A stretch of 31,729 bases of DNA. Source: a virus. Taxonomy: Duplodnaviria; Heunggongvirae; Uroviricota; Caudoviricetes. Location of the stretch: the IMG/VR virus record IMGVR_UViG_3300045988_181180. One strand, given 5' to 3'. The position numbers were made by a program, and so were the translations under genes. The notes under the pieces were generated by a model, which had not been told where the DNA came from, ran no database searches, and was given only the letters and a program-made list of their open reading frames with translations. Positions 7,103 to 31,148 of this stretch are shown here, in pieces; the first letter of the stretch is position 1; every line of letters starts with the position of its first letter.

Positions 7103-7118
7103 ATTTTTTATTTTGATG

Positions 7119-7126
7119 CAAAGATA
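7119..7126 (-). promoter_or_regulatory. Candidate Bacteroidota-type -7 promoter box (coding strand TATCTTTG)
   Basis: Plus strand reads CAAAGATA inside TGCAAAGATA, 16 nt upstream of the ATG at 7102. Confidence 0.45.
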
Positions 7127-25197: not shown

Positions 25198-25217
25198 ATA
25201 GCTATGCAATTTTCGTG

Positions 25218-25225
25218 CAAAGATA
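25218..25225 (-). promoter_or_regulatory. Candidate -7 promoter box (TATCTTTG)
   Basis: Plus strand TGCAAAGATA, 20 nt upstream of the ATG at 25197. Confidence 0.45.
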
Positions 25226-25340
25226 CAAAGAAAATTTGAAATAACTAACGATAATCGGTAAAAACTAACTTTTATCAGTAAATTTGGTGTGATATAATTT
25301 CGTCCGAAAAGTTTGTATTTTTGTATCGTACAAACAAGGC

Positions 25341-25590
25341 TCTGTAACTAGCTGATAATCAATACTATTTTTGTGATACAATTTTCTGATACAGAAATTG
25401 TAACTCTTTAGCTTTTGTAACTTGGGGTTTTGTCGAGGTCGAAGACCTGTAGGAGAAGGGGCTTGTTACAAACTTGAAAAACTTTGTAACCGAGTTGTAA
25501 CGCAACTTTGTAAACATCGGCATGGCGGCTTAACTCACTCTTTTTTAGTTATTTACCTCTTTTGCTAACATTATGTTACAGAGTTACAAA
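25341..25590. repeat. Iteron-like cluster of the octamer TTTGTAAC (4 perfect and 5 one-mismatch copies, both orientations); candidate origin or regulator-binding array
   Basis: Perfect copies at 25414..25421 (+), 25465..25472 (-), 25483..25490 (+), 25583..25590 (-). One-mismatch copies at 25341..25348, 25397..25404, 25494..25501, 25507..25514 and 25575..25582. A given 8-mer is expected about 0.008 times in 250 bp on both strands. Confidence 0.65.
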
Positions 25591-25686
25591 GGATTTGTAT
25601 AAAATAAAAGAAAGGGGTGTGGGGAAAACGATGGCACGGGGCGTGAAGGAGGTTAGAAAAGGCCCATCGAGACACCCAGGACACCC

Positions 25687-25700
25687 CCATTGGCCAATGG
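25687..25700. repeat. Perfect 14-bp palindrome CCATTGGCCAATGG
   Basis: Self-complementary 14-mer in the GC-rich part of the noncoding region between the iterons and the primase terminator. Confidence 0.6.
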
Positions 25701-25741
25701 AGGGGTAGCGAGACGAAACATCGCCCATGGCAACGAAAAAA

Positions 25742-25770
25742 GGGAGCGACGGCCAATGCGCATCGCTCCC
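25742..25770 (-). terminator. Intrinsic-type terminator downstream of the primase-helicase gene
   Basis: 8-bp perfect stem GGGAGCGA / TCGCTCCC with a 13-nt loop, followed on the minus strand by TTTTTT (plus-strand A-run 25736..25741). Confidence 0.55.
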
Positions 25771-25951
25771 TCGTAACATGGGAAAAGAATTATAAATCAG
25801 CAAAAATCTGCCTATGAAATCAGCCCTCGTCTGCTTGCAAAAATAGTGAAAAATTGCTTGAAAATTTAGCCGAAAATATTTGCATAATTCAGATATTTTT
25901 TGTACCTTTGCACTATAACTTGGGGCTATCTATTCTATTATATATGGATGG

Positions 25952-28906
25952 CTAGAAAGGTTTATCACTATCTTTATCTACCTTGCTCCAGTCAATGGTA
26001 GATTGATATTCACCCCCAGCTGCAGGGACATCAGCCTTGGCAGCTTGTTTATCCTCTTTTTTATCATCACTCTTCTTGCTTCGGAGATAGATCATCTCGA
26101 CAGGGCTGCCGTCTGGGTTAGCTGGATCGCGTCTGATGATGCGGTGCTGGCTGTTGCAGAGATCAGCTGGGTTCAGCTCTTGGATGTATGGACACAGCTC
26201 GACGAAGGCTCTGAGCTTTTTGGTGAAGCTCTGTGTGGTCGCCTTGTTGATGCCTGAGAACTGCTTGAAGTCATTGAACGCACGCTCTCTCACGATAAAT
26301 GTATCGAGTCGCTCGCTCTCTTCTGAGAAGTAGGATGCAGCCCAGTCTTCGAAGTTGACACCCATGTCGGCCTTGAACTTGCGCTTGATGATGTTATCCA
26401 TCGGTGGCATGATCTTGATAGGTTCGCCAGCCAAGGAGAGATAGAAACGACAGCACTGCAGGAAAAAGTTGATGTCAGCATTCCACTCATCCTCAGTGTA
26501 TGTCTTTGAGAAGAGATCTTCGTCGAAGTCATCACGGATGCTTCGGGTCTCTTGGTAATCATTCTCCTCTGTGCGCTGATGGTAATAGTCGGAGAACACC
26601 ATATAGAGCAGTCTCGCCTCTGAGGAAGGGTCGAAGTCTGCCGGCACGTAGTTGGTGGTGAAGGCAATCTTCGGGCTATCCTCGAAAGGAATTGTGAAGC
26701 TCTGGTTGTTCTTTGGGTTGACTGTCATATCTGAAGTAATGTTATCGTAAAATAAACCTGTGTTGAGATAGCGGTCACAGTCATCGAGGAGCAGCATCTG
26801 GGTGTGCTGTGTCACCTGATCGAAGACGTGTGGGTTGTCCATCAGCTTAGGGTTGCGTCCGGAAAGCTTGACTGTTTTCATCAGCAGTGAAAGCGTCTTG
26901 AAGAAGAAACTCTTACCGGAACGGCCGTTGCACTCGTTGTTTTCACCAATCTTGTTGTCCATCGCCATCGGAGCCCAAGCCCTGGATGGTGCCTTGTAAT
27001 GATGGAGCATGTAGCCGAAGGTGAAAATCTTGTTTATCAAGTTCTGCTTTTGCTCTTGTATCTCGTTGTCGGCAAGCCCTTCGCCAGCGATGTCGAAGAG
27101 GTGTGCCTTGTGGTATGCCTCTTTCTCCTCGATGCTCTTGTCCTCAAAAGCATACTCTAGCTCTTTGCGCCAGTAGGTGCGAGAGGCGTTGATGAGATAG
27201 CCGAAGAAGTGGGACTTCACGTTCTTGACCTCGATGTCGAACTTCGGCCTGCCATCCTCGTCGATGGTTCGTGTGATGGAGAACATGTCATCCAACTTCT
27301 TGAAGTTGTGGTTGATGACATTCTCTTGCCAAACATAGTTTTTGAGCGAGCTGCCCTCACGCTGGTACTCGTTTAGTCCATCTTTGGTGACCTCGACGCT
27401 GACACGAGGGAAGAAGAACAACTGCGAGTGGTTGGTGTAGCTGGTGAAGTCTAGCGTAATCTCTTGGAGCGAGTCGAGCGCCGATGCCGACAGCTTTGGC
27501 GTGTTGAGCACCAAGTTAAGGATGTCACGCTTCTCAGCTCTCTCGATGACCCATTGGCGGCAGAACTCACGGATGTCTCTCGTGGTGATGAGCTTGACGA
27601 TGTTGCCCGTGATGCGAACATATTTGGTGATGGTCGAGTTGTCATCGTGCAAGGTATAGAAACCATTGAGACGAAGAAAATTGTAGAGGCACGCCGTGTC
27701 GATGTAGTGGTCCCAGGTGTTAGCCTTTTTGTTGAGCTTGCTCACCCAAAATCGGGCTGGCATCGCCAGTGTCATGAGGTTGCGGAAGTCTTTGCGAGTA
27801 TTGCGCAGCTCCATCCAGTCTCGCAGGTCTTTGCGCCCCTTGCCACGGTTGTCGTGGTAGGTGCGAAGCCAAGAAGGCAACCATATCGTATGGATGTCGA
27901 TGAAGCGCAGGGCAAGCTCTGTGCCCTTGGCGATGCCCGTCTCGTCGATGTCGGGTATATTGTAGAGCACCTCGACATACTTCATAATCTCTCGGTACTC
28001 CTCGTCGCTGAGCTTGTAGGTCTCGGAGTTGAACCATAACGGGTTGTAGCCCATGGAACGGCAGCAGAGACTGTCACGCTCGCCACTGCAGATGAAAGCC
28101 TCGGGAAGTTTCTTCTCCTTGTAAGGCTTGGACTCGTCTGTGTTGGTCTTGTTGTACTCAGCCTCTTCACGGCGGTTGAACTCGTGATAGGCAGCCTTCA
28201 GCTCAGCTAGGCCATTGATGTATTGCTTAGGCTTGATGCCGTCTGGGGTGTAAGAGAATCGCCACTGCTTTTGGTAGTTGAGAGGCTCATATATCTTGTA
28301 GAACTTAACCTCAGGCTTGTCGCCTTCAGCTGGGCGAACCAAGCACTCACGCATAAAGATAGGGTAGTGCTCGTTGCTGTGCTTAATCTTGACCTTGCGG
28401 TCTTTGACGTATCCTATCCACTTGGCGGAATGCCAGTTGAGTGCATCGACGTGCTCTTGCTTGACGTTTGGACCCAGTACCTTCAGTTCATCCTCGGTGA
28501 ACTTCTCGTTCAGCTCGAAAGGTCTGGTACCATCTTTCTCGTTGATGGTGGCATCACGCTCTGTGAATGTAGGCTTGTTGACCTCTTTTTTGAGTTCATC
28601 GCTAACGTTGTATTCGGAAGCCAGTCTCAGGATGGCATCAGGAAAGCGGTCGATGCACTTCTCTCTCATGTAGAGGTCGATAGGTGACTCGGCAGAGCCG
28701 TCGCCGCCGAAGTCAGTCACTCGCCAGCAGTCTTTGAACTTTTTGAGACTGCAGGAAGGTGTTTTCTCATTGCGGATGGCAAAGTGCTTTTTAGGCGTGC
28801 CAGTCGTGCAATATTTCTGGACGCATTCTTTTGCGTCCGGGTATAGTGAGATGATGATGTCGAGACCATCATCTGTAGCTTGATAAATTTGTTCTGCTTT
28901 GATCAT
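25952..28906 (-). CDS. Putative replicative primase-helicase (P4/D5-like, SF3-type P-loop NTPase)
   Basis: The track start at 28936 is a TTG; the first ATG at 28906 gives 984 aa. Walker A ECNGRSGKSFFFKTL and Walker B-like MLLLDDCD in the C-terminal half. -7 box TAATTTTG 27 nt upstream; hairpin plus T-tract terminator downstream. Confidence 0.6.
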   Translation of the reverse strand: MIKAEQIYQATDDGLDIIISLYPDAKECVQKYCTTGTPKKHFAIRNEKTPSCSLKKFKDCWRVTDFGGDGSAESPIDLYMREKCIDRFPDAILRLASEYNVSDELKKEVNKPTFTERDATINEKDGTRPFELNEKFTEDELKVLGPNVKQEHVDALNWHSAKWIGYVKDRKVKIKHSNEHYPIFMRECLVRPAEGDKPEVKFYKIYEPLNYQKQWRFSYTPDGIKPKQYINGLAELKAAYHEFNRREEAEYNKTNTDESKPYKEKKLPEAFICSGERDSLCCRSMGYNPLWFNSETYKLSDEEYREIMKYVEVLYNIPDIDETGIAKGTELALRFIDIHTIWLPSWLRTYHDNRGKGRKDLRDWMELRNTRKDFRNLMTLAMPARFWVSKLNKKANTWDHYIDTACLYNFLRLNGFYTLHDDNSTITKYVRITGNIVKLITTRDIREFCRQWVIERAEKRDILNLVLNTPKLSASALDSLQEITLDFTSYTNHSQLFFFPRVSVEVTKDGLNEYQREGSSLKNYVWQENVINHNFKKLDDMFSITRTIDEDGRPKFDIEVKNVKSHFFGYLINASRTYWRKELEYAFEDKSIEEKEAYHKAHLFDIAGEGLADNEIQEQKQNLINKIFTFGYMLHHYKAPSRAWAPMAMDNKIGENNECNGRSGKSFFFKTLSLLMKTVKLSGRNPKLMDNPHVFDQVTQHTQMLLLDDCDRYLNTGLFYDNITSDMTVNPKNNQSFTIPFEDSPKIAFTTNYVPADFDPSSEARLLYMVFSDYYHQRTEENDYQETRSIRDDFDEDLFSKTYTEDEWNADINFFLQCCRFYLSLAGEPIKIMPPMDNIIKRKFKADMGVNFEDWAASYFSEESERLDTFIVRERAFNDFKQFSGINKATTQSFTKKLRAFVELCPYIQELNPADLCNSQHRIIRRDPANPDGSPVEMIYLRSKKSDDKKEDKQAAKADVPAAGGEYQSTIDWSKVDKDSDKPF

Positions 28907-29386: not shown

Positions 29387-29576
29387 TGTTCTTCATTCTG
29401 AATTTAACAATACCTGCCACGATGCCGTCTTCTTGGTCATCGTAGAACATATTTAAATCTGTTGTGCCCTTATGGAGTGTACCATAGGACACGTCAACGG
29501 CAACGCTGGCATCCTCGAAATCTTTGAGGATGGCTTGAAGCTGTTTGCTGTTGCATCTGACTGTCATTTTTCCCAT
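29370..29576 (-). CDS. Hypothetical early protein
   Basis: 68-aa ORF with ATG start; 13-nt overlap with the upstream gene. Confidence 0.4.
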   Translation of the reverse strand: MGKMTVRCNSKQLQAILKDFEDASVAVDVSYGTLHKGTTDLNMFYDDQEDGIVAGIVKFRMKNNEKED

Positions 29577-29782
29577 GATCCATCATTGATAATTTGCTCG
29601 ATGACCTCTCTGTCGATGGCACGCCAAGTATTGGTGCGCATCTTATTGTAGATGGTGTTCTGGCTCATCTCTAGCTTTAGCTGCAGTGTGGCCATGAACT
29701 TGCTTCTCTTTTTGCGTGGTATCTCATTATACCATGCGAGGATGATATTTTCATCATCATTTTTTTTGTTTTTTTCTTGCAT
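29564..29782 (-). CDS. Small basic protein, possible Cro/Xis-like DNA-binding protein; first gene of the early operon
   Basis: 72-aa ORF with ATG start, divergent from the HTH regulator gene; -7 box TAACTTTG 28 nt upstream. DNA-binding role is inferred from the basic composition and position. Confidence 0.45.
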   Translation of the reverse strand: MQEKNKKNDDENIILAWYNEIPRKKRSKFMATLQLKLEMSQNTIYNKMRTNTWRAIDREVIEQIINDGSWEK

Positions 29783-29799
29783 ATTCCAATATTTATTAT

Positions 29800-29807
29800 T
29801 AATTTTG
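29800..29807 (+). promoter_or_regulatory. Candidate -7 promoter box (TAATTTTG) for the HTH regulator gene
   Basis: Only TAnnTTTG match in the divergent intergenic region on the plus strand; 96 nt upstream of the ATG at 29904, so it would imply a long leader. Confidence 0.3.
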
Positions 29808-29810
29808 TTG

Positions 29811-29818
29811 CAAAGTTA
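29811..29818 (-). promoter_or_regulatory. Candidate -7 promoter box (TAACTTTG) for the early operon
   Basis: Plus strand CAAAGTTA, 28 nt upstream of the ATG at 29782; back to back with a plus-strand box at 29800..29807. Confidence 0.45.
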
Positions 29819-29903
29819 GTAATAAAAATCGGAAAATACTAACGAAAGTAAGTAAAAACACCTATGATAATAGGTTAAATATTATTAATTAAATTAGATA
29901 ATT

Positions 29904-30281
29904 ATGTTTAATGGTCAGATAATCAGAAAGTTAATGTCGGATGCTGGCTTAACTAAAAAAGAGTTTGAAAGACGTATGTTCGGTAGTAAATCGACCGACC
30001 TCAACCATTTGGAAAAAGCGAAGAATCTTCGCAGTGACACTCTCGAACGTCTGCGTGAGGTGTTGAAGTGCTCTATGGATGACTTCTTTACAGCACCCTC
30101 ATGGGCTGAGAACGGAAAGGGGACAGTCGTAGGCTCTAACAATGTGCTGTCAACAGTAGCCATCGGCAACGAAGTGATGGAAGCCCAATATCTCAAGGAG
30201 TTGCTCTTGGAGAAGGACAAACGCATCAGCACTTTGGAAAATTATATCAAGCTTCTGGAGACTAACTTAAATAAGGACTAA
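29904..30281 (+). CDS. HTH (XRE/Cro-CI-like) transcriptional regulator with C-terminal coiled coil; repressor candidate
   Basis: 125 aa. N-terminal segment SKSTDLNHLEKAKNLRSDTLERLREVLKCSMDDFF resembles XRE-type HTH domains. Only plus-strand gene of the element and divergent from the early operon. Confidence 0.6.
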   Translation: MFNGQIIRKLMSDAGLTKKEFERRMFGSKSTDLNHLEKAKNLRSDTLERLREVLKCSMDDFFTAPSWAENGKGTVVGSNNVLSTVAIGNEVMEAQYLKELLLEKDKRISTLENYIKLLETNLNKD

Positions 30282-30494
30282 TACGAAACATAATTCGTAA
30301 GATGAATCCTTATATATAATAAGGTGTATAAAATATATCGTATAATCTCAGCAGTGATATCCAACTCGTTAGTCTTGCCGCCGCAACAATGCAAATCGGG
30401 TAGAAAGTTGTTCTTCAACATTCTATCCGATATTTTTTTTATCCCTTTATTTATAATTTAACACTAAATATTTGCATATATCGAATAAAACAAC

Positions 30495-30502
30495 TAATTT
30501 TG
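30495..30502 (+). promoter_or_regulatory. Candidate -7 promoter box (TAATTTTG) for the TetR-family gene
   Basis: TAATTTTG 49 nt upstream of the ATG at 30552. Confidence 0.3.
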
Positions 30503-30551
30503 CACACAGATATTTTTATGTGCAATCATTTTAATTAGGAGGGACTTCAAT

Positions 30552-31148
30552 ATGTCAATTTCCAAAACAAGACAAAAGTTAGTAGATGTTGCTCGACAAC
30601 TGTTTGCTAAGAACGGTATAGCTAATACCACTATGAATGATATTGCTGTAGCTTCTGGTAAGGGTCGCCGTACGCTCTATACGTATTTTAGCAGAAAAGA
30701 AGATGTCTATTATGCTGTGATAGAATCAGAGTTGGATCGTTTGTCTGAGAAACTCGATGAAGTTGCCTCTTGCAAAATGCGTCCTCAAGATAAAATCATT
30801 GAGCTTATTTATACACATCTCAGTATGATTAAGGAAACTGTAGTTCGTAATGGTAATTTGCGAGCTGAGTTTTTCCGTAATATCTGGATGGTAGAGAAGG
30901 CTCGCAAGAATTTTGATGAGGATGAAATTGAGATTCTGAGAAAGATTTATTCTGAAGGAAAGGAAGACGGTGAGTTTGACATTGATAATGTTGATCTCGT
31001 TGCAGATATTACTCATTATTGTATCAAGGGCTTGGAAGTACCATTCATCTATGGACGCCTGGGACATGGACTGAATGTGCAATCAAGCAGACCTCTTGTT
31101 GCTAAGGTAGTATATGGTGCCTTAGGTAAATCTGGATTGAAATTGTAA
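30552..31148 (+). CDS. TetR/AcrR-family transcriptional regulator
   Basis: 198 aa. N-terminal TetR-type HTH signature (RQKLVDVARQLFAKNGIANTTMNDIAVASGKGRRTLYTYF). AGGAGG sits 9 nt upstream of the ATG; AT-rich. Confidence 0.85.
   Translation: MSISKTRQKLVDVARQLFAKNGIANTTMNDIAVASGKGRRTLYTYFSRKEDVYYAVIESELDRLSEKLDEVASCKMRPQDKIIELIYTHLSMIKETVVRNGNLRAEFFRNIWMVEKARKNFDEDEIEILRKIYSEGKEDGEFDIDNVDLVADITHYCIKGLEVPFIYGRLGHGLNVQSSRPLVAKVVYGALGKSGLKL

Follow-up and report, generated by a model that had tools for sequence, protein, structure and literature searches.

Predicted interlocked promoters and candidate dyad operators in a putative lysis-lysogeny region of a Segatella copri-type prophage

Introduction

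When the gene of a helix-turn-helix (HTH) regulator faces away from an early operon across a short spacer, the question is whether that spacer works as a lysis-lysogeny switch and, if so, how its promoters and operators are arranged. We ask this of a 31,729-nucleotide (nt) stretch of DNA, IMG/VR virus record IMGVR_UViG_3300045988_181180 (Caudoviricetes), hereafter called the window, which by comparison with related contigs is most of a temperate tailed prophage of about 44 kb in the tRNA-Met gene of a Segatella copri-type host. A preliminary description of the window had noted two promoter boxes on opposite strands between an HTH regulator gene and the early operon and had likened the arrangement to a CI/Cro-type switch. 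Our analysis confirms the double box. We consider it reasonably probable that the spacer belongs to an immunity (lysis-lysogeny) region in which the two promoters interlock, the HTH protein acts as repressor at dyads of both lytic promoters, and p72, the 72-amino-acid (aa) product of the first early gene, is the counter-regulator. In type the region is an ordinary prophage switch, in an unusual, Bacteroidota-specific build.

S. copri (Segatella/Prevotella) is one of the most abundant human gut bacteria. The current literature sorts Bacteroidota repressors by domain content only, and no description of the operators or the promoter layout of a Bacteroidota phage lysogeny switch was found in the literature searched. 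New here are the conserved design of interlocked promoters and a map that shows in detail where the promoters and operators of such a prophage family lie.

Results

The spacer comprises 121 nt between a 72-aa open reading frame (ORF; 29564-29782, minus strand) and a 125-aa ORF (29904-30281, plus strand). Promoter boxes were defined by TAnnTTTG, the −7 consensus of the Bacteroidota sigma-A factor. The features around the spacer are:

29564-29782, minus strand: p72 (72 aa), first gene of the leftward early operon, candidate Cro/MOR-like HTH protein by weak similarity
29783-29806, minus strand: predicted 24-nt 5' untranslated region (UTR) of the p72 mRNA, placed from the box position, with C at −1 and A at +1
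29800-29807, plus strand: −7 box TAATTTTG, predicted rightward promoter of the HTH gene, sole plus-strand TAnnTTTG of the spacer
29811-29818, minus strand: −7 box TAACTTTG, predicted leftward early promoter, fitting the extended form TAnnTTTGCA
29800-29818, no strand: near-palindrome of 19 bp in which 3 bp separate the two boxes, core of the interdigitated promoters
29904-30281, plus strand: 125-aa XRE-type HTH protein with leucine-zipper tail, candidate repressor by Pfam, PHROG and structure model

Read directly, the plus strand runs from TAATTTTG (29800-29807) through TTG (29808-29810) into CAAAGTTA (29811-29818), the last being TAACTTTG when read on the minus strand (29818-29811); with its flanks the core reads ...TTATTAT TAATTTTG TTG CAAAGTTA GTAATAA... 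Both boxes match the TAnnTTTG consensus exactly. This consensus occurs 35 times in the window against 12.8 +/- 3.6 in shuffled sequences, and its intergenic copies mostly lie directly upstream of gene starts and carry the extension TTTGCA. The combined pattern TAnnTTTG-N3-CAAAnnTA, with one mismatch allowed, is expected 0.02 times per window and was found as one exact copy at 29800-29818 and one single-mismatch copy at 7108-7126. Direct reading and this low expectation thus bear out the earlier observation that the boxes stand 3 bp apart and form a near-palindrome. The single-mismatch copy, TTATTTTGATGCAAAGATA, precedes a 1159-aa tail gene; its leftward half is whole and its rightward half has no TA.

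Relatives were gathered by protein similarity and not by the motif, with six lineages coming from look-ups of the exact protein and 69 IMG/VR loci from a profile of ten HTH proteins. Over a range of HTH identity from 100% to 25%, both boxes with exactly 3 bp between them (TAnnTTTG-N3-CAAAnnTA) are present in 54 of 57 distinct upstream regions; two of the remaining three have one mismatch in the leftward box, and the last is a weak match that is unrelated. The plus-strand box taken by itself keeps both TA and TTTG in 56 of the 57 relatives, and the spacer has no other plus-strand TAnnTTTG in any lineage. The variable middle bases of the boxes (AT, AC, TC, TA or AA) and the central triplet (TTG, CTG or ACG) do change, so that the constraint acts on the promoter consensus and its spacing and not on one palindrome. 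In an intergenic alignment of 11 lineages, the box core and the TTATTATTA stretch directly upstream of it make up the longest near-invariant stretch. The phage has a second leftward promoter (25218-25225, see below), with no rightward gene at that place, and there the position mirrored to its box has lost TA and G: it reads CAATTTTC in the window and consists of T-runs without TA in five other lineages. Compared in this way, the plus-strand box is specifically retained at the switch spacer and decayed at the mirrored site.

Several other Bacteroidota phage families, whose proteins BLAST does not relate to the HTH protein of the window, have this 19-bp double box too, between small divergent genes that look like regulators (L042, L046, L051, L059, L072, L108, L113, L139, L057, L071, L067, L101, L121 and L137). 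Some of the proteins encoded there are HTH-like; in one example, where the genes start only 8-15 nt away from the motif, a protein of 143-150 aa faces a basic one of 76-99 aa. As the pattern itself was used to find these loci, nothing can be read from how often they occur. Among 120 loci carrying the exact pattern, about a third have it inside long ORFs, where it is probably a chance match. A scan of IMG/VR for TATCTTTG-N0-12-CAAAGATA showed no enrichment of the 3-bp spacer (N=3 in 4 of 120 loci, as against 23 for N=0 and 17 for N=4), and the idea that this spacing is a general rule of bidirectional promoters in Bacteroidota was rejected on that ground.

In Flavobacterium the sigma-A box occupies positions −12 to −5 from the transcription start (PMC9723704). 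Applied to both boxes, this position predicts a rightward start at 29812 and a leftward start at 29806, 6 bp apart and diverging, each of them an A preceded by C; the predicted transcripts diverge without overlap. Of the two boxes, the one on the plus strand is nearer to the 72-aa ORF and the one on the minus strand nearer to the HTH gene; either box falls among the first 7 nt of the opposite predicted transcript, and each −33 region lies in the transcribed DNA of the other. The promoters had been described as back-to-back, a picture that does not hold: the boxes are crossed, and the promoters with their closely spaced predicted starts overlap or interdigitate. With each box in the first bases of the other transcript, RNA polymerase probably sits on one promoter at a time; simultaneous open complexes at both are probably impossible, as the melted regions would coincide.

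The 24-nt leader of p72 is typical and the predicted leader of the HTH mRNA, at 92 nt, is long when measured against Bacteroides thetaiotaomicron, where 23 nt is the commonest 5' UTR length and 32 nt the median (PMC7366714). By direct reading, a TTTG-like element near −33 has a full match at neither promoter and 3-of-4 matches only, namely TTAG for the leftward promoter, inside the operator candidate O-A described below and at the right spacing, and CTTG at 29776-29779 for the rightward one. Across Bacteroidota the −33 element is weakly conserved or undetectable (PMC7366714). The leftward box has the TTTGCA form and the rightward box does not, which suggests that the lytic (leftward) promoter is intrinsically the stronger of the two. 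A sigma-70 promoter scan is uninformative for Bacteroidota.

A second plus-strand promoter near 29890-29897 (TAAATTAG) was considered and rejected, as it is not conserved in the relatives. The regulatory region is also flanked by a direct repeat, ATTATTAAYT (29794-29803 and 29882-29891), with both copies almost invariant across lineages. One copy belongs to the p72 leader, where it immediately precedes the rightward box, and the second to an A/U-rich stretch before the HTH start codon; the repeat may be tied to translation initiation.

The preliminary description had called the 125-aa protein an XRE-like HTH protein with a coiled-coil tail, and both parts of this assignment are borne out. Its profile matches are Pfam HTH_26 (E = 1.8e-6; 28.5 bits, above the gathering score of 22) and PHROG 3 'transcriptional repressor' (8.6e-5). 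An AlphaFold 2 (AF2) model has helices at residues 6-13, 18-26, 34-37, 44-54 and 58-61, a low-confidence linker at 65-87 and a long helix at 90-124, on which direct reading finds the heptad residues L97, L101, I108, L111, I115, L118 and L122. A zipper-mediated dimer of the modelled protein would fit a dyad of 16 bp with half-sites one helical turn apart. No S24 or other peptidase domain was found in it with Pfam or NCBIfam, the C-terminus being a single long helix in the model. RecA-stimulated self-cleavage is accordingly not expected, and a lambda-like response to RecA or mitomycin C should not be assumed.

Of the two domain assignments looked for in the proteins flanking the spacer, that of p72 could not be made in the same way. 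Its model has four helices, with weak similarity to lambda repressor and XRE proteins. Pfam, PHROGs and NCBIfam gave no family match, a word-based homologue search returned close relatives only, and no sequence match to a solved structure reached significance.

Where, then, would these proteins bind? A protein-binding segment at 29790-29830, around the double box, had been suggested, and the best operator candidates lie mostly outside it. They are 16-bp dyads in two pairs, each upstream of a leftward promoter. The scores given here come from an operator weight matrix built from other lineages only, with the lineage of the window left out:

29838-29853, no strand: O-A, ACTAAC-GAAA-GTAAGT, centre about −39.5 from the leftward and +33.5 from the rightward predicted start; 19.5 bits, rank 1 in the window
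29860-29875, no strand: O-B, ACCTAT-GATA-ATAGGT, 22 bp centre-to-centre from O-A, a weaker match; 12.1 bits, rank 6
25244-25279, no strand: second operator pair, ACTAACGATAATCGGT at 25244-25259 (17.5 bits, rank 3) and ACTAACTTTTATCAGT at 25264-25279 (19.0 bits, rank 2), 18 bp upstream of the −7 box at 25218-25225
25218-25225, minus strand: −7 box TATCTTTG of the second leftward promoter, with the start of a 194-aa gene 20 nt downstream of the box
30283-30298, no strand: possible operator at a distal position (tentative), ACGAAA-CATA-ATTCGT, lying 2 nt past the stop codon of the HTH gene; a weaker site is close by, at 30261-30276

The 194-aa gene heads the protease, capsid, tail and lysis genes. 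O-A starts 19 bp upstream of the early −7 box and the second pair 18 bp upstream of its own. In the 31.7 kb searched, the top three matrix sites exceed 16.9 bits, the 95th percentile of the maxima in shuffled sequences, and O-B falls below it.

Between lineages the half-sites differ, but within one phage both promoters carry the same ones, ACTGACGAACGTCAGT in L023 and ACTAAT...ATTAGT in L013. The two halves of O-B change together across lineages (ACCTAT/ATAGGT, ACGTAT/ATACGT, ACTAATA/TATTAGT), and five dyad base pairs show double changes, in which changes on both sides keep the symmetry. In all, 84.8% of the dyad cells are complementary against 77.9% in shuffles, a value reached by none of 500 shuffles and above all slid controls. 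Subfamilies at 25-32% HTH identity carry a longer inverted repeat in the leader with quite different words. At the second promoter of these subfamilies the words are found again, directly over the −7 box, which is the geometry of a repressor site. Operator variation across lineages follows the HTH protein and not p72. In L023 altered operators go together with an altered predicted recognition segment (GSSASD in place of GSKSTD), while its p72 helix is that of L105 and L013; conversely, helix 3 of p72 differs strongly between the window and L105, which have the operators and the HTH recognition segment in common. Taken together, the comparison argues for protein operators of lineage-specific ('immunity') specificity and for one protein controlling both promoters of the lytic direction; the operators are likely the dyads and not the palindrome at 29800-29818.

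The distal candidate sites score 10.3 and 13.7 bits in the matrix, neither being individually significant. A dyad-like element follows the stop codon at the same place in several relatives, for example ACGAACGAAGGTTAGT in L180, and the element at 30283-30298 might serve as a distal looping site. In the distant subfamilies (L096, L233-L261, L228-L232, L253-L259) a stem of 9-17 bp follows the double box and is itself followed by a conserved GGATTT(T)AAC word, which in one of them is also in the stem loop. On the plus strand this stem includes G-U pairs, and at one position A-U, G-U and G-C variants occur.

The setting of the spacer is that of a temperate phage. In the prophage part of the window the HTH gene stands alone on the plus strand, as stated before, and every other called gene is on the minus strand, where the large genes match phage terminase, head-maturation protease and tail-associated PHROG families. 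The divergence of the HTH gene from the early operon also stands, with the operon running p72, a 68-aa gene, a 103-aa gene and a 984-aa putative primase-helicase; the name of the last is less secure. The 984-aa protein (25952-28906, minus strand) has no match in Pfam, NCBIfam or PDB and matches only PHROG 28855, of unknown function, and the label derives solely from a Walker-A-like GRSGKS and Toprim-like acidic motifs seen by eye. Members of its family adjoin the switch in all relatives, including gp6 of Bacteroides phage BT-TP2.

The preliminary description had seen no integrase. None is in the window, but one exists about 14 kb to its left, at the far end of the prophage. IMG/VR contig 3300045988_187506 (43.9 kb) has an HTH protein 100% identical to that of the window at one end and a tyrosine integrase at the other, and at the integrase end its tail and lysis genes are 100% identical to those left of the window; in the relative L019 the integrase matches Pfam Phage_integrase. 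The full gene set of the prophage comprises terminase, protease, tail genes, amidase and integrase. An intact tRNA-Met(CAT) lies upstream of the integrase at the far end (L182-L184; 1022-1097 in L182), and its last 12-17 nt are repeated in the window, which contains no whole tRNA:

30371-30387, no strand: attR core, 3' fragment of tRNA-Met, right border of the prophage

Two relatives with 77-81% HTH identity, L180 (9371-11161) and L019 (6001-7785), are circularly permuted; in them HTH gene, att core and int follow one another without a break. Both look like excised or circular phage genomes, which suggests that the family is still active.

Two further ideas about this junction were dropped. 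That transcription of the HTH gene runs on into int in the circular form was judged unlikely, since the phage arm has a hairpin and a T-run between att core and int. Integration-dependent immunity of the BPs type was rejected because the att core is 90 nt after the stop codon (30279-30281), outside the gene; the circular-form relative L180 encodes an HTH protein of the same 125-aa length.

Contigs with the exact 125-aa protein run rightward into host genes for TetR, a short-chain dehydrogenase (SDR), RluA, TamB and BamA. A homologue with 64% identity at the same locus, a Segatella copri protein according to NCBI, is found in 8,684 collection blocks and the HTH variant of the window itself in 487. 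The nearest isolated phage is BT-TP2, whose replication gene has 67% DNA identity. This phage is temperate, and BT-TP1, which is almost identical to it, has been obtained by induction from B. thetaiotaomicron (PMC12694917).

Discussion

The likeness to a CI/Cro-type lysis-lysogeny switch proposed earlier survives as regards a temperate boundary between regulator and lytic genes and a Cro/C1-type HTH protein; promoter geometry, operator site, induction signal and the apparent lack of an integrase all had to be revised. Support for the switch reading comes from the double box being kept in 54 of 57 relatives and from the inducible phage BT-TP2 having the same gene plan. In the mechanism that follows we infer the start sites, which protein binds which site, the sign of regulation and the competition between promoters.

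The rightward box would start the HTH mRNA at about 29812 and the leftward box the early-operon mRNA at about 29806. With its leucine zipper the 125-aa protein would form dimers, whose targets would be 16-bp dyads of the type ACTAAY-N4-RTTAGT. In the lysogen, HTH dimers on O-A and O-B would lie over roughly −32 to −70 of the early promoter, where TTAG, the one −33-like element it has, is found, and further dimers on the pair at 25244-25279 would keep the structural and lysis promoter silent, so that both lytic promoters would be shut. Since the −7 boxes interlock, keeping polymerase off the leftward promoter should free the rightward one, and with the competing polymerase removed the repressor's own promoter would be favoured, an indirect form of self-stimulation. 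The dyads also lie at +27 to +64 of the repressor's own transcript, so that high occupancy might damp its synthesis. When the leftward promoter fires, p72 would be made first and would act as counter-regulator, either Cro-like, by binding DNA, or MOR-like, by binding the repressor. A bolder extension, which we offer tentatively and regard as rather doubtful, is that the interlocked −7 boxes are themselves the bistable element: a repressor that does no more than obstruct the lytic promoter on its −33 side would thereby automatically turn its own promoter on, without any activating contact with polymerase, and this wiring, with its invariant 3-bp spacer, would have been kept across a large family of Bacteroidota temperate phages while the repressors diverged to 25% identity and the operator words were completely replaced.

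Several points weigh against this scheme. The start sites are extrapolated from other Bacteroidota. The plus-strand box lacks the TTTGCA extension present at the other promoters of the phage, and its T-run could come in part from the A-rich start of the leftward leader (compare 7108-7126 and 25207-25214). O-B reaches a match score of just 12.1 bits. The correlation of operators with the HTH recognition segment comes from a handful of lineages, so the co-variation is supporting evidence and not proof. Finally, the positions of the dyads, the poor −33 elements of both leftward promoters and the folding of the dyads in RNA are open to other explanations, which are taken up here.

The first would reverse the sign of regulation: a protein bound to the dyads, be it the HTH protein or an early protein such as p72, would activate the leftward promoters, and the HTH protein would not be a maintenance repressor. 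The site centres near −40 and −60 (roughly −39.5 and −61.5 for the early and −38.5 and −58.5 for the second promoter) are positions also typical of activators, resembling those of class II and class I, and weak −33 elements, with TTAG inside the dyad, would fit dependence on an activator. Against this, no other gene faces away from the lytic direction to serve as repressor, and the operators co-vary with the HTH protein and not with p72. Moreover, the words of the distant subfamilies overlap the −7 box of the second promoter, where a bound protein would block polymerase instead of recruiting it, and the HTH gene stands at the prophage end, the usual place of repressors in Bacteroidales (bioRxiv 10.64898/2026.06.25.734096). 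We hold activation to be unlikely.

A second explanation moves the dyads from DNA to RNA, as hairpins in the 92-nt HTH leader that would set the stability or translation of the mRNA. The leader does fold at −16.8 kcal/mol (z = −2.98 against shuffles) with both dyads as hairpins, the changes on both sides of the dyads keep RNA pairing as well as symmetry, and the stem of the distant subfamilies, here 14-17 bp, shows G-U pairs on the plus strand and, at one position, A-U, G-U and G-C variants. However, the same dyads with the same lineage-specific half-sites stand at the second leftward promoter, where there is no conserved rightward promoter or gene, and in distant subfamilies the words fall on the −7 box there. 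A search of Rfam gave no match, and a long-range closing stem had no covariation support. RNA hairpins as the sole account of the dyads were set aside because of the copies at the second promoter, and we give this explanation little credence, though an RNA role could exist alongside operator function as an added layer.

A third possibility, which we think quite improbable, leaves only the leftward box as a promoter. The plus-strand box would be a by-product of constraint on a palindromic or A-rich leader, or a protein-binding palindrome, and the HTH gene would be transcribed in some other way. The missing TTTGCA extension, T-rich runs at the mirrored position of other leftward promoters (7108-7126, 25207-25214) and a 92-nt leader that exceeds the typical 23-32 nt all speak for it. 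Yet TA stands at the right distance from TTTG in 56 of 57 relatives and is lost at the mirrored position of the other promoters, the spacer offers no alternative plus-strand TAnnTTTG in any lineage, and nothing upstream in the prophage is transcribed rightwards.

That the element is a fixed, non-inducible remnant whose module serves superinfection immunity or silencing and takes no decision, as its presence at the same tRNA-Met/TetR locus in thousands of assemblies (the 8,684 and 487 blocks of the two HTH variants) and the lack of a peptidase domain for an SOS response might suggest, is very unlikely in view of the full gene set, the diverse lineages at the site, which imply repeated integration, the circularly permuted HTH-attP-int contigs at 77-81% HTH identity, and a relative isolated as a plaque-forming, inducible phage.

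For a repressor-controlled immunity region the closest known system in plan is, by analogy, the CI/MOR switch of TP901-1. CI of TP901-1 has an N-terminal HTH domain, a flexible linker and a helical dimerisation region and no RecA-cleavable peptidase, and a 72-aa HTH-type protein comes first in the divergent lytic operon; dimers bind palindromic operators, one of them distal (PMC7250872). The window shares with TP901-1, and with S. aureus phi13, the repressor made of HTH domain, linker and helix without peptidase, as an architectural match only, and with TP901-1 the 72-aa first gene of a divergent lytic operon and dyad operators that include a tentative distal site (30283-30298). No sequence similarity to TP901-1 was detected. 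The promoters of TP901-1 are of the sigma-70 type and stand back-to-back around a central OR, whereas those of the window are of Bacteroidota type with interlocking −7 boxes. TP901-1 has three operators, one central and one distal; the window has no dyad between the starts, both adjacent dyads lie on one side, and a second operator pair stands at a separate late-gene promoter. Its repressor is also shorter, with 125 aa as against 180 aa, and is without the extra multimerisation domain.

In lambda the starts of PRM and PR are about 80 bp apart and belong to separate promoters. As in lambda, repressor and first lytic gene of the window diverge, the HTH domain is of the XRE/lambda type, and adjacent dyads, spaced by some two helical turns, overlap the lytic promoter at its upstream element, their occupancy being predicted to favour the repressor's own promoter. 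Unlike lambda, the window has predicted starts separated by 6 bp, encodes no S24 autocleavage domain in its repressor candidate and has no tripartite operator between separate promoters; the dyads are to one side (29838-29875), in the repressor's own leader, and self-stimulation would come from relief of promoter competition and not from contact with sigma.

Divergent transcription from overlapping polymerase sites has precedents. In the symmetry-driven bidirectional promoters of E. coli and in tetA/tetR of Tn10, elements on opposite strands of a short symmetric segment give overlapping sites for polymerase. The window resembles these in its divergent transcripts from overlapping sites and differs in having TAnnTTTG boxes side by side, in crossed order and with a fixed 3-bp spacer, inherited in a phage family.

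Among Bacteroidota phages, BT-TP2 and BT-TP1 (PQ571279) share with the prophage of the window an integrase and then a Cro/C1-type regulator, which faces a small HTH gene, small genes and a replication protein of about 970 aa (67% DNA identity), and they are experimentally inducible and plaque-forming. In BT-TP2, unlike the window, the 67-nt regulator spacer has no 19-bp double box and the integrase adjoins the regulator instead of lying across attP; its retroelement is not among the called genes of the window's prophage. A 2026 preprint describes N-terminal-domain-only (NTD-only) CI-like repressors, HTH proteins at prophage ends with the DNA-binding part and no peptidase, as common, with 429 Bacteroidota prophages, and reports that mitomycin C did not induce the NTD-only prophages in one strain, B. 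thetaiotaomicron Bt_806 (bioRxiv 10.64898/2026.06.25.734096). The 125-aa protein fits this class by description alone; the study covers one Prevotella isolate only, and promoters and operators are not described in it.

The map of the window is testable, with two predicted starts, a consensus and four to six sites for operators, a counter-regulator candidate and a candidate repressor that has no SOS-cleavable domain, and it would allow experiments on how such prophages stay silent and what induces them. The different immunity types could provide compact orthogonal repressor-operator pairs for genetic tools in Bacteroidota. Promoter competition, if confirmed, would show a simple way, other than that of lambda, for a repressor to activate its own synthesis.

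Further observations

The non-coding gap at 25210-25950, directly downstream of the 984-aa gene, contains a cluster of TTGTAAC words. Six of the 10 copies in the window, in both orientations, lie at 25398-25589, with 2.15 expected in the whole window, and the cluster may represent replication-origin iterons.

Outside the prophage, the host TetR gene (30552-31148) has a TAATTTTG box of its own at 30495-30502. The probable auto-operator of TetR is an inverted repeat, TTGCACA-N12-TGTGCAA (30500-30525), with which this box overlaps.

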